DNA of 64,000 nt. Source: Eledone cirrhosa (Eukaryota). The stretch spans positions 163,122,001 through 163,186,000 of the forward strand of contig OZ024740.1 in the NCBI GenBank assembly GCA_964016885.1, in the 5' to 3' direction. The notes under the pieces are model-generated. The model worked only from the letters and a program-made list of their open reading frames with translations, was not told the DNA's origin and ran no database searches. Position 1 is the first letter of the stretch. The number at the start of each line of letters is the position of its first letter. Of the stretch, positions 3,595 through 54,243 are shown piece by piece. The translations under genes and the position numbers were made by a program.

Positions 3595-4462
3595 CATCAT
3601 CATCAACGTTTAACGTCCGTGTTCCACGCTTGCATGGGTTTGGACGGGGGTTTTCCCCCTTGAGGCAAGAGTGATTGTCTTGCTCGCATAGGACTGTCTG
3701 GCAGGTTTTCTACAGTTGGATGCCCTTCCTAACACCAACCAAATTTACAGTGTGGGTCTGGGAGGTTTTTACCGTGTTGCCTACACGGCCACATTACAGC
3801 GTGGACTGTGTGTTTTTTTGTCGTGACACCTACACGATCTCATTTGTTTCGGCCTGGATGGTGTGGCACCAACATAACTTTACATAGAAGGGGGCGGTGT
3901 GGATGGGGTGTATTTTGTTAGAGATGCCTACTGACTGTAGTAGGTTTTACTTCGTATTTAGGTAAGGCGGGTCTTCTCTATTACTGAGTACCGCCAAAGG
4001 TCTCGGTCCAGTGACATTGTCTTGGTGAGGTGTAAGTGTGTTCGGTCGGAGTTTATCAGCTCGTCCCAGGTTTTTCTGGGTCTGCCTATTCCGTGGCTAC
4101 CGTCTATCTTTGTTATACAGCTATCGTCCTTCATGCGCATCACGTGACCATACCAACGTAGCCTTCTCTCTAGTAAACAACATCTGATCCCTCTTATTTC
4201 TAATTTTTTCCTTAGTTCGTTTATGCTTTGTCGTTCACGTATATTACTATTACACATCCAGCGGAGCATGCAAGCTTCGTTTTTCTCTAGTCTGTGTATA
4301 TCCTCTGCACACAATGCCCAGGTCTCACTGCCATGCAACATTGCTGTTCGTATGCAGGCATCGTACAACCTGCCTTTCATTTTTAGGGAGAACCCTTTAG
4401 CGGCTAATAGTGGTATAAGCTCTCTGAACTTTTTCCACCCAGTTCTGACTCTAGCTACTGTA
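3595..4462 (-). mobile_element. 5'-truncated RTE copy, tail-to-tail with copy 1
   Basis: Reverse-complement 3' UTR from 3595, then ORF end [15 protein letters not shown]...DRDLWRYSVIEKTRLT, near-identical to copy 1. Confidence 0.93.
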
Positions 4463-4887
4463 CGTATATATATATACATATATATATATACATATATTGT
4501 TATACTTTGGGAGGGTCATGTTGCCAATAAGAAACACACGCACCAGTTGCTTTCACTTCAATTTATTATATATTTATAAATTCATAAATTTACAAATCTA
4601 CAAACCTATAAATTATAAATTTCTGGTTGACCAACCAGAAATTTATAATTTATAGGTTTATAGGTTTGTAGATTTGTAAATTTATGAATTTATAAATATA
4701 TAATAAATTGAAGTGAAAGCAACTGGTGCGTGTGTTTCTTATTGGCAACATGATCCTCCCAAAGTATAACAATATATGTATATATATATATGTATATATA
4801 TATACGTACAGTAGCTAGAGTCAGAACTGGGTGGAAAAAGTTCAGAGAGCTTATACCACTATTAGCCGCTAAAGGGTTCTCCCTAAA
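4382..4887. repeat. ~500-bp near-perfect palindrome (RTE fragment + TA tract + pLTR-like stub, mirrored)
   Basis: Centre ttctggttg-ac-caaccagaa (4621-4640); the arms differ by one substitution and an 8-bp duplication in the right arm. Confidence 0.93.
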
Positions 4888-4946
4888 TATCGGTTTCAAC
4901 ACACGATTTCAGATAAAGAATATTGCTAAACAAATTCAGAAACGAA

Positions 4947-6035
4947 ATATATACATATATATATATATATATATATATACATATATATATATATATATAT
5001 ACATATATATATACATATATATACATATATATATATATATATACATATATATATACATATATATACATATATATATATATATACATATATACATATATAT
5101 ATACATATATATATACATATATATACATATATATATACATATATATACATATATATATATATATATACATATATATATACATATATATACATATATATAT
5201 ATATATATACATATATATATACATACATATATATACATATATATATATATATATATATATATATATATATATACATATATATATACATATATATATATAT
5301 ATATACATATATATATACATATATATATATATATATATATACATATATATATACATATATATATATATATATATATACATATATATATACATATATATAT
5401 ATATATATATATATATACATATATATACATATATATATATATATACATATATATACATATATATATATATATATATATATATATACATATATATACATAT
5501 ATATACATATATATATATATATATATATATATATATACATATATATATACATATATATATATATATATATATATATACATATATATACATATATATATAT
5601 ATATATATATACATATATATATATACATATATATACATATATATATATATATATATATATATACATATATATACATATATATATATATATATATATATAT
5701 ACATATATATACATATATATATATACATATATATACATATATATATATATATATATATATACATATATATATATATATATATATACATATATATACATAT
5801 ATATATATATATATATATATATACATATATATACATATATATATATATATATATATACATATATATATATATATATACATATATATACATATATATATAT
5901 ATATATATATATATACATATATATATATATATATATACATATATATATACATATATATATATATATATATATATATATATACATATATATATATATATAT
6001 ATATATATATATACATATATATATATATATATATA
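4947..6035. repeat. (TA)n/(TACA) microsatellite
   Basis: Directly visible; source of the spurious Ile/Tyr ORFs. Confidence 0.97.
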
Positions 6036-6187
6036 GTACGTTATTCCGGGTTGAATCGGAGGTAACCACAGTAAGTAAGGTACTCAATACATAGCAGAGT
6101 ATAACAGTTTTAATATAGATGAGATTCTACAGGACTAGAACTGTTTCATTAGTTCTAGTCCTGTAGAATCTCATCTATATTAAAACT
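6036..6187 (-). mobile_element. Penelope-like pseudo-LTR 3' stub with 37-bp inverted arm
   Basis: Perfect inverted arms 6106-6142 / 6151-6187 around gtttcatt. Minus strand reads aatGAAACagttctagtcctgtagaa...tactct...atgtattgagta...actgtggt, matching 54123-54243. Confidence 0.65.
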
Positions 6188-51769: not shown

Positions 51770-52251
51770 GCCCCAAAACTGTGGCTCCGCTATCAGAAGG
51801 GTTTAGCACGGCCAACTGGCCTGTCCCTCTTCATAGCGGTGCCATCCAGTTCCGCTCTGTAAATGTGGTTGCTGCACCAAACTGTGGTCCTGCTGTGAAG
51901 AAGGGTTTGGCACAGCAAACTGGCCTGTCTCTCTTCATAGCAGTGCCATCCAGTTCCACTCTGTAAATGTGGTTGCTGCACCAAACTGTAGTCCCGCCCT
52001 GAGGTAGGGTTCAATGCGGCCAACTGGCCTGTCCCTCTTCATAGCAGTGCCATCCAGTTCCGCATGGTAAATGTGGTTGGAGTTAGAAAGGGCATTCAGC
52101 TGTAAAGAAAAAACAGCCAAATTTACAGTCCCACTGGAGCAAGGTACAGCGTAGCCAATCCTAGCCAGACTTGTCTCTCAACACAGACGACTCATCTGAT
52201 CCATGCAAGCATGGAAGAATGGACATAAAACAGTGATGATAATGATGATGA
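51770..52251 (+). mobile_element. RTE-type 3' UTR with three tandem ~105-bp units
   Basis: Unit ...aactggcctgtccctcttcatagc.gtgccatccagttcc...gtaaatgtggttg x3, then gttagaaagggcattcagctgtaaa and ccatgcaagcatggaa...ggacataaaacagtgatgat. Confidence 0.75.
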
Positions 52252-53008
52252 TTCTCTAACATCCATTTAAGGGATATTTGGCTGTTATGTTTAGAAGGTC
52301 GAGTGATTACATTGATGCTCCATCACTAGCTTCCATGAATTTAGATAACTATGGCTGAAAAATATTCTCTACGAAGTATACAAAAGATTGCCTCTTAGAG
52401 AAGTGAAATATAAACCTAGCAGTAAAGCAGGAATTATAAGTGACCCTCAAACAAAATTTTTGAAATTATTTCCTTTTTTTTTTTAAGAGTCACTAACAAT
52501 GAGCTCAAGGTTTATATTTTCTTTCTCCAACTAAAAGGCAAATTTCAATTTATTTATTTATAGTTTTTGTCAATACACCATTCAATACATCACCACCTAC
52601 CTGAAACATATATCTTAGGATAAGTTATGTTGTTTGTTTGATTGTGTGTGTGTATGTGTGTGCATGCATGTTTGTATGTGTGTATGCATGTATATGTGTA
52701 TGTATGTATGTTTGTATTTTTGTATACATGTGTACATACATATGTAACATCAACATTATTTTATATCTGGTGTAAAGTCCCAACTTCATACTTATCAGGA
52801 TGATTATAAGCCTTTTGTAAGAGGTTGGCACCATGAAGGGTATCTAACCATTCCTGGTGTCAATCCTTTTAGTCACCTCTTACAACAAGGTGTAACTATT
52901 CTAAACTGGATACAAACAGATAGTTTCATATGTCTGGATTATAATATTCAGCCATTACTGGTATTATCAATATATTGGAACTAAAACACTTATCTTTGAC
53001 AAACTTAA

Positions 53009-53224
53009 CTCTTAACATCCTGTAATGATTTAGCAGAAAATATCTAAAAATGAGTCTGTTCATTCAAATGATTATTAGTATCTTTATATGGATAGATCAT
53101 TATGAAAATTTGCAGTATTAGAGTAAAGACCTTACTTTTTATTGTGATGCAGTTATATTGTTGTTTTGTACTTTTTAAGAATGTACTTGTTAATATGGTT
53201 TTGTGTGGTAGAGGATGTTAAGAG
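53009..53224. mobile_element. TTAA-flanked MITE with 12-bp TIR
   Basis: ttaa-ctcttaacatcc...ggatgttaagag-ttaa. Confidence 0.75.
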
Positions 53225-54032
53225 TTAAATATATTTGCTAGACTAAAATCCAAATATTAACATTTCTATTGATAACACAGTATTAACCAAATGGTCATAT
53301 GCTGACTAAGGTTACAGAACCAATAGCATCTAAACACATCTGGTAAATGATATCCAAATTCAAAGAAACGTATGCTGCCTTATAACACATAGATCATCAC
53401 TACAGCTATATAACATAAATAATTAATAGAAACATTATGCCTGTACAACATTCATTTAATCCATATGAAAACAAAGTAGTGAAAAAGACTAAAATTAATA
53501 CAATTTAGAATTTCAAAGATGCAAATGCCCAAAGCAACTTTTTTTTTTTTTTTTTGAAGCAATAATGAAAAGGTTTTAGCTACAGAAGAAATATCTTAAT
53601 GCTACTTAAGATTAATTCTTACTTTATACTGAGTGTACTACTTTAATCTTTAAATCATGTATTTTTATTTTTCTCCTCAGCCTAGTTTATGATACTATAT
53701 TCATCACAAACATTAGAAGGATACTTTTTATGGATAAGCAAGCACATTACATTTTATCTGTCAGCAGACTTTTATTGGTTTCAATCATTGGAATTATTTT
53801 GTTGACCTTGAAGATAGTTGAAATGTAACACTAACTTGGGTAGAATGGGATATAACCAAATACTAAAAATAGGTATTGTTTGATTCGCTATAACACTGAT
53901 TCTTCTTTCTCCCACTAATACACATACATCTCTCCTTCTCTTTATATATATAGATAGATAAAAACAGACCCTCAAGTGTACTTTGAGCAGTGCCTTTTCC
54001 ATGCTAGTATGGGTTATATATATATATATAAC

Positions 54033-54243
54033 TTTATTATACATAGAAATGATTTCTCCAGGACTAAAAGTGTTTCATTCATATGAAATCATCATGATGG
54101 ACATTCCTGATGATTTCATATAAATGAAACAGCTTTAGTCCTGTAGAAGACATTTCTATATATAATAAAAATGCCTGTACTCTACCAATGTATTGAGTAA
54201 TTCATTTAACTGTGGTCACCCACGACCCAACTCGGGAATCTAC
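54033..54243 (+). mobile_element. Inverted pLTR pair with HHR-like core plus tail, between TA tracts
   Basis: Imperfect palindrome 54033-54169; CTGATGA (54107)-tttcatataaat-GAAAC (54126); tail homologous to the minus strand of 6036-6150. Confidence 0.65.

Follow-up and report, generated by a model that had tools for sequence, protein, structure and literature searches.

Palindromic inserts in the Eledone cirrhosa genome as end fragments of Penelope-like elements

The closest described relatives of the DNA considered here are the endonuclease-bearing (EN+) Penelope-like elements (PLEs) of the Hydra clade, for which hammerheads in the pseudo-long terminal repeats (pLTRs), insertion into (TA)n, an inverted truncated copy and a tail have been described (PMC8557442). 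Much of this combination is found in seven short palindromic inserts within a 64-kb stretch of the 3.0-Gb genome of Eledone cirrhosa (G000:C1:163122001-163186000; hereafter the window, to which all unprefixed positions refer). These inserts are end fragments of six PLE families, designated A to F. With a probability of roughly 0.62, they are stubs, that is, heavily 5'-truncated element ends (inverted pLTR, direct pLTR, tail) formed by run-off of reverse transcription at the RNA 5' end and subsequent fold-back of the cDNA. The palindromes are real, but they do not represent a new class of element.

Unlike in the Hydra clade as described, solo palindromic pLTR stubs in this genome far outnumber copies with an open reading frame (ORF), the tails are longer (60-135 versus 30-40 nt), stem II inserts of the hammerhead reach up to 115 nt, and there is a shared tail hairpin as well as a 5'-end hot spot, neither of which was found in that account (PMC8557442). 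For Penelope of the rotifer Adineta vaga, inverted pLTR, direct pLTR and optional tail have been given as the typical structure, junction palindromes have been read as self-priming, and solo pLTRs and TATA- and initiator (Inr)-like pLTR motifs have been reported (PMC3846280); that element, however, has a low copy number, and self-priming was proposed on antisense RNA, whereas the flank duplication in insert 4382 points to cDNA folding back at the target. The Poseidon PLE of the green anole, studied in vitro, shows two internal start sites and cutting and extension of both strands, with no need for hammerhead cleavage (PMC11167929), but it belongs to a different clade, starts in an AC-rich stem loop, has a binding motif narrowed to 172 nt, and inverted structures are left unexplained in that account.

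Hammerheads and their derivatives have likewise been described. Among the minimal hammerheads of metazoan PLEs, opposite-strand pairs 100-700 bp apart have been ascribed to truncated PLEs, and a U3-A8 core variant (found here in C1 and E), an unpaired base before stem II and palindromic stem III loops are shared with the present families; in contrast to them, families B, C and F have stem II inserts of ~60-115 nt, and the hot spot of family C splits the ribozyme, its stubs holding half (PMC4209133). Non-LTR retrozymes are also non-coding, hammerhead-bearing derivatives of PLE pLTRs (bioRxiv 10.64898/2026.07.22.740005), but as reported their units follow one another head to tail, each with its complete ribozyme, whereas the arms here are head to head, often with half a ribozyme or none; all seven inserts are head to head, and three lack a full core. 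Thus, the layout, the (TA)n targeting, self-priming and opposite-strand hammerheads have been published already, and it is the covarying tail hairpin and the duplication of a target flank that are worth following up.

Head-to-tail arrangements do occur elsewhere. In other samples, reads with joints going back ~62-68 nt by way of a short linker (L289:1908-1975) reveal the hammerhead arm of family A in head-to-tail tandems. A retrozyme-like satellite, a tandem array with a 310-bp unit and a hammerhead-like core in each, lies at G000:C3:150115866-150119100 and C3:150074900-150076300 (L198, L194), and one short array of this unit is itself folded into a 1.4-kb palindrome.

The inserts and their parent families

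Palindromes in the window were mapped by masked self-comparison, which recovered six of the seven inserts as strong local palindromes, with centres that agree with those of the preliminary description. The inserts are named here by their starting positions and comprise families A (6036, 54033), B (8612), C (19469), D (4382), E (15086) and F (35858). A preliminary description of this DNA had proposed a common layout of two arms and a tail in inserts from several sequence families, and this was borne out: the seventh insert has outer arms of 31 bp, one-sided tails are present in all seven, and the number of families is six. TA tracts, said to lie at the junctions, are found at both ends of five inserts, but on the right side only of insert 15086 and inside each arm of insert 4382, the left outer flank of which is an RTE long interspersed element (LINE).

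The family B stub (8615-9172, + strand; palindrome 8615-9036, centre 8825, arm identity 100%) matches, at 100% identity, the pLTR of a family whose 824-aa ORF is intact. It comprises an inverted arm (8615-8817), a TA-like spacer, a direct arm from 8835 and a tail (9040-9172), with a predicted complete type I hammerhead fold at 8834-8983 (+; 8-bp stem I, 115-nt stem II insert), a mirror copy at 8668-8816 (-), and a tail hairpin, ACTC-NNN...NNN-TT-GAGT with a long insert, at 9044-9124 (+). In the family C stub (19472-19677, +; palindrome 19472-19591, centre 19531, 89%), the inverted arm (19472-19530) is followed by a direct arm from ~19535, which begins in the stem II loop, and by a tail from ~19594 with its hairpin at 19600-19623. 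Family A is represented by an A2 stub on the minus strand (6037-6186; palindrome 6107-6186, centre 6146, 92.5%), consisting of tail 6037-6106 with hairpin 6082-6100, direct arm 6107-6146 and inverted arm 6147-6186, and by an A1 stub on the plus strand (54033-54241; palindrome 54033-54169, centre 54101, 85%), in which the inverted arm is followed by a direct arm from ~54100 with a degenerate hammerhead and by a tail hairpin at 54179-54198. An additional family A stub, absent from the preliminary list, lies at 35714-35840 (-).

The family E stub (15086-15497, +; palindrome 15070-15436, centre 15253, 84%) is older, with ~85% identity to its relatives, and has an inverted arm, a direct arm from ~15257, a minimal hammerhead with the U3-A8 core at ~15307-15357 and a short tail. 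The family F stub (35858-36137, -) has its tail at 35858-35935, a tail hairpin with two substitutions (35906-35930), a complete predicted hammerhead fold (35983-36078), and an internally deleted inverted arm to 36137, leaving the outer arms and a short inner fold. Insert 4382 (palindrome 4379-4890, centre 4634, 95%) contains the inverted (4498-4634) and direct (4635-4771) arms of family D.

Because this layout recurs at many loci and the family C joints recur in raw reads of other samples, the palindromes are not artefacts of assembly, as the preliminary description had allowed they might be. Raw reads from three other samples show the C strand-switch joints at the same positions; the source of these samples may be a close relative and not the same species (shares up to 0.56), and A-type hot-spot joints are present in raw reads and contigs of other samples. 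The window also holds palindromes beyond the seven, some of RTE or short interspersed element (SINE) sequence, which might suggest fold-back chimeras of the library or assembly, or host repair at TA tracts unrelated to the elements. Such an origin is nevertheless scarcely credible for the inserts, since, in addition to the recurring joints, their arms have diverged (84-95% identity in most of those in the window) and their outer ends are fixed at an element-defined boundary.

Five of the families are linked to coding sequence for reverse transcriptase (RT) and a GIY-YIG nuclease, four by Hydra-clade similarity (with motifs in three) and one of Neptune type; the domains were read by eye from motifs, and the clade calls are motif-based. 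A single ORF with RT followed by GIY-YIG is intact in B and partial in D, and similar ORF pieces are linked to A2, C and F. The parent of family B forms 6.9-kb tandem units, and its tail is the start of the next unit; the inverted arm is present in 40 of 64 C copies. The tails of A2 and F lead straight into similar ORF starts, family C lies 0.9-1.1 kb past GIY-YIG ends at several loci, and family D lies ~0.36 kb past its partial ORF. A link between tails and PLE ORFs is therefore direct for A2, B and F, with C and D pLTRs near ORF ends, but it was not found for E or for A1, no parent of the latter having been found. Searched against Pfam and PDB sequences, the B ORF gave no significant match.

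Described marks of the Hydra clade are DKT, an RWK-like motif, a CxCX5C linker, no CCHH, and CxxC/CxH near the end of the endonuclease (EN), together with insertion almost always in (TA)n (PMC8557442). The stubs insert in (TA)n; the B ORF has DKT, RWR, the CxCX5C linker, and CxxC and CxH near the EN end, and no CCHH; DKT and RWR are also present in A2 and the CxxC end in C, and F is linked by similarity alone. These four are probably Hydra-clade PLEs. The D ORF, with a C-X4-C-X2-C linker and paired Cys/His matching the CX2-5CxxC linker and CCHH endonuclease of Neptune, appears to be of Neptune type, Nematis being also possible. The intact B ORF (L112:2486-4957, -) contains a ~100-aa Asn/Thr/Lys-rich stretch between RT thumb and linker, which recalls the N-rich inserts of rotifer PLEs. 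One A2 copy has a GIY-YIG fragment shortly before it, which was dropped as a candidate for the A2 parent, as reads show the true upstream ending in CCCAG, and eight extra G at -1 counted with that link were dropped too.

Hammerheads and turn-around positions

The type I hammerhead of the pLTRs is a predicted fold. With a relaxed script it could be folded for A1, A2, B, D, E and F copies, the stem II insert ranging from 12 to 115 nt; this script scored no C1 or C2 hammerhead, and the C fold was drawn by eye. A strict descriptor (stem II up to ~80 nt) gave none in the window, and among 150 listed of 231 Rfam matches there was no hammerhead family, sub-threshold microRNA-like hairpins being the only kind of match. 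The folds are complete in inserts 8612 and 35858, minimal in 15086 and degenerate in 54033, and in 6036 and 19469 only the 3' part is present (GAAA, stem III and the 3' strand of stem I). The statement that every insert has all or part of a hammerhead core thus holds for six but not for 4382: the family D hammerhead occupies +66 to +101 of the pLTR, and because this insert turns past it, at ~+145, the GAAA at 4639 does not belong to a ribozyme. A hammerhead on both strands, also proposed earlier, is confined to 8612, 15086 (variant) and 54033 (degenerate) and lacking in the other four.

Each family has its own turn-around position, which may lie before, inside or far from the ribozyme, or there is no pile-up at all. 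Family C was followed through 68 tail hits, of which 64 were analysed and 58 mapped (six being unmappable), in an arbitrary 1.2-Mb sample of the genome from seven places. In this set 41 of 58 copies (one of them a mis-scored parent) have their ends no more than 5 nt from the A of TTT-AGTCC, a site in the stem II loop 43 nt past the start of the core and 18 nt before GAAAC. In family F (30 copies selected by tail), the ends of nine fall between 0 and +4 of a position that precedes the core by 34 nt. The pile-ups of A and B lie directly 5' of stem I, that is, of the whole ribozyme; nine B hits begin at the A of TC-ATT, in a set that is query-biased, tail-only genome searches for B and D having returned no candidates, not even their own loci. 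Depth in restriction-site-associated DNA (RAD) libraries was left unused, because the read ends at 8664 and 8675 fall on AATT and probably mark a restriction cut.

The preliminary description had proposed that RT stalls at the ribozyme and that palindrome centres track its core. Several observations could be read in this way: the ribozyme contains or adjoins the hot spots of A, B and C, GAAAC/stem III is the end point of four of 30 F copies, ~3 of 58 C copies stop close to the cleavage site, and insert 6036 turns, as claimed, at GAAAC (6146). However, an enzyme moving 3' to 5' meets the 3' side of the ribozyme first, so that stalled products should end there, and only a minority do. For A, B and F, most of the ends that pile up are found past the 5' side, where the ribozyme has already been copied whole (in F by 34 nt), D and the further family G have no sharp hot spot, insert 4382 turns 44 nt downstream of its ribozyme, and other palindromes turn inside ORFs, including one, far from any hammerhead, with both arms beginning at the same codon. 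The turn-around thus does not follow the ribozyme across families, and of two turns assigned to a stem II hairpin, that at 19532 does lie in the C stem II loop but that at 4630 does not. A stall at RNA structure, be it the hammerhead or an adjacent hairpin, with self-priming there and the same PLE origin, is therefore unlikely; as an explanation it largely gives way to probable run-off at the RNA 5' end, and the hammerhead is likely a passenger near the start site.

Motifs around the hot spots suggest that these positions are RNA 5' ends. In A2, TATAAA lies exactly 30 nt before CCC-AGATT in seven of eight loci, and the hot spots of C, A2, B and E peak at pyrimidine-A dinucleotides, in keeping with the Inr consensus. 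In contigs of another sample, the C parent loses depth ~20-fold upstream of +1, the very position at which 68 contigs break off in loose ends. Transcription starting at an Inr within the pLTR is on record for Penelope of D. virilis (PMC2377424). Together, motifs and pile-up make it somewhat probable that the hot spot is the transcription start. A reading of the hot spots as 3' splice sites, considered for the YAG in A2, C, D, E and F, was not favoured, AG often being kept and no common upstream exon being seen; an intron ending at helix I has been reported in D. virilis (PMC4209133). Around the start of a family D pLTR (L118 ~7530-7600) there are putative promoter motifs similar to those of ETS, NRF1 and YY1.

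Fixed ends, the tail hairpin and fold-back

The outer ends of the stubs are fixed. Of 40 C inverted arms, 34 stop no more than 3 nt from the tail boundary, and all 11 B inverted arms among 40 scored candidates stop at query position 206. Just past the end of the inverted arm, a motif ACTC...TYGAGY occurs on one side in 46 of 115 palindromes and on both sides in none. Although the search for this motif demanded no inner pairing, 35 of 36 inner positions pair (32 as Watson-Crick pairs) when one example is taken from each of 12 families or subfamilies; 100,000 re-pairings gave a mean of 24 pairs and never 35, a figure that is not a formal probability, the examples being hand-picked and the families related. 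The loop varies from 3 to ~65 nt and the hairpin from 19 to 81 nt in total, and the tails of D and E lack the motif. This covarying hairpin may be a signal for RT initiation. No description of it, or of the run-off mechanism, was found in the literature searched, a scope without most subscription journals, Repbase and supplements, and the hairpin is apparently unreported. RT of the Poseidon PLE starts in vitro at two internal sites bracketing the tail and extends both target strands (PMC11167929), which would explain the fixed ends.

Run-off and fold-back may be envisaged in four steps. First, a promoter in the pLTR would start an RNA that reads hammerhead, tail and ORF, an order observed in A2, B and F. 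Second, the GIY-YIG nuclease would cut (TA)n, and the target ends would prime at two fixed RNA sites bracketing the tail, in accordance with the fixed ends and with the two-site, two-strand priming demonstrated in vitro for another PLE (PMC11167929). Third, priming on the 5'-proximal tail would leave 60-300 nt to copy, so that cDNAs would end at +1, where the pile-up is observed. Fourth, the 3' end of the cDNA would fold back through a homology of zero to a few nt and be extended on itself as far as the other priming site.

Insert 4382 offers the most direct view of fold-back. Its target flank (4379-4497) consists of 80 bp of an RTE copy and a 39-bp TA tract, and an inverted duplicate of this flank (4772-4886, -) separates the family D tail (4887-4946, +) from its arm. 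The TA tract is identical in the two arms and the invaded RTE sequence is identical at 79 of 80 positions, so that 119 bp of flank are duplicated, including a base without counterpart in three other RTE copies of the window; the tail comes only after the duplicate. Duplication of target flank indicates DNA-templated copying, and the arrangement agrees with a cDNA that was primed from the left end of the target at the boundary, folded back, copied itself and overshot into the target before the tail was joined.

The two arms might instead stem from separate cDNAs, begun at opposite ends of the target and then joined head to head, with fold-back mostly unneeded. Both target strands are indeed extended in vitro (PMC11167929), either arm can be the longer one, and at some loci both arms are complete to +1; the variation in arm length fits fold-back of either cDNA or a joining of two. 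However, the ends of the two arms often match in position, also well away from the hot spot, and the flank duplication (4379-4886) requires DNA-templated copying, which makes joining as the general route very improbable. The earlier view of the inserts as PLE pLTR derivatives made by self-priming fold-back at (TA)n is, in contrast, upheld by the coding parents, the fixed ends and the duplicated flank.

A number of observations weigh against run-off and fold-back as set out here. Most F copies (21 of 30) end away from the hot spot, four of them within the ribozyme and the rest scattered, and nine of 23 D arms extend beyond -350, the others being scattered. A TATA-like sequence at -30 is clear in A2 alone; in C1 and C2 it is also a stem II strand, and none was seen in B, C3 or F. 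Extra G, as expected from copying of the cap, is weak in C, where it is seen in 20 of 48 ends at +1 and in 9 of 45 at control offsets; many such G can be put down to the inverted arm, and in B only 2 of 18 cases have it. In C, the enzyme could also be halted by a weak inner hairpin immediately upstream of the hot spot. Copies extending upstream of the hot spot exist, with 5,172 exact matches for A2 and 43 of the first 100 listed for C (a hand count, under a filter that favours them). No second clear flank duplication was found among 11 candidates from the sample and a scan of loci. Finally, family E has no significant protein link, its ORF-end remnant being judged by eye alone, and the placement of B, A2, C and F in the Hydra clade is by motif and similarity.

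A bolder extension, which we regard as tentative and rather doubtful, is that the tail hairpin of the Hydra clade is the binding and initiation signal of a telomerase-like RT that primes 4-20 nt 5' of it. Initiation on the 5'-proximal copy would then yield capped "strong-stop" cDNAs that snap back and integrate, accounting for ~10^5 perfect hairpins, some of them re-mobilised as a stub class.

Abundance, mobility and significance

The stubs are very numerous. First-look candidates, which are lower bounds (40 were scored per family), number 2,846 for A, 2,509 for C, 286 for B, 1,217 for D, 2,884 for E and 2,936 for F, and the best 40 family B hits are ~100% identical to insert 8612. The 1.2-Mb sample contains 67 loci of C, 35 of G (detected in this sample), ~22 of A, 22 of D, six of F, three of E and two of B, as well as 107 palindromes of at least 60 bp and at least 80% identity. 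If the sample is typical, there are roughly 10^5 palindromes genome-wide, not all of them derived from PLEs.

Such numbers invite the idea, already raised in the preliminary description, that the stubs are a mobile non-autonomous class, transcribed from their own loci and propagated in trans by PLE proteins like SINEs or retrozymes. One filtered C pattern alone has 18,189 exact genomic matches, and the sample has 67 C loci; stubs keep both priming sites, none of 30 viewed A1 loci extends upstream, tandem A-type joints exist in reads, and pLTRs are reported to be sufficient in trans in a rotifer (PMC3846280). Yet there are ~8 junction types among ten B palindromes viewed with arms matching the coding parent, one C junction is found again in different subfamilies, with the variants of the subfamily present in both arms, and A2 stubs lack the upstream TATA box. 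These heterogeneous and shared junctions favour repeated de novo formation from parent transcripts; self-propagation is quite improbable as the general explanation, and secondary mobilisation is still possible, above all for A1.

Further repeats in the window and elsewhere were noted. An 8-kb TA-rich tract (4947-13020) with several separate insertions, among them 6036 and 8612, appears as a sink for TA-targeting elements. SINE-like palindromes or inverted pairs lie at 13248-13640, 44431-44779, 59392-59482 and 61840-62218, and at L209 ~2686-2896; one SINE-like fold-back is 96% identical, with its 3' ends outward as in the PLE stubs. Two RTE 3' ends are arranged tail to tail round a TA tract at 2282-4458 (arms 91% identical), and further RTE copies lie at 389-3160, 32776-33948 and 45434-48189. 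The 3' end of another repeat family (54245-54415), which resembles hammerhead-bearing PLE ends elsewhere, forms a tail-to-tail palindrome centred on a TA tract. Broken reading frames at 55361-57524 bear a resemblance, judged by eye, to a Helitron Rep/helicase.

The literature cited here treats the origin of the inverted repeats and tails of PLEs as an unanswered question. This genome offers very many short natural products of the process, together with the young family B, which has an intact ORF and 100%-identical stubs. Two predictions can be made, namely that the turn-around hot spot would coincide with the RNA 5' end and that the covarying hairpin of 19-81 nt would be a signal for RT recruitment. 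Beyond the mechanism, the load of palindromes matters for the annotation of repeats and for false microRNA calls.

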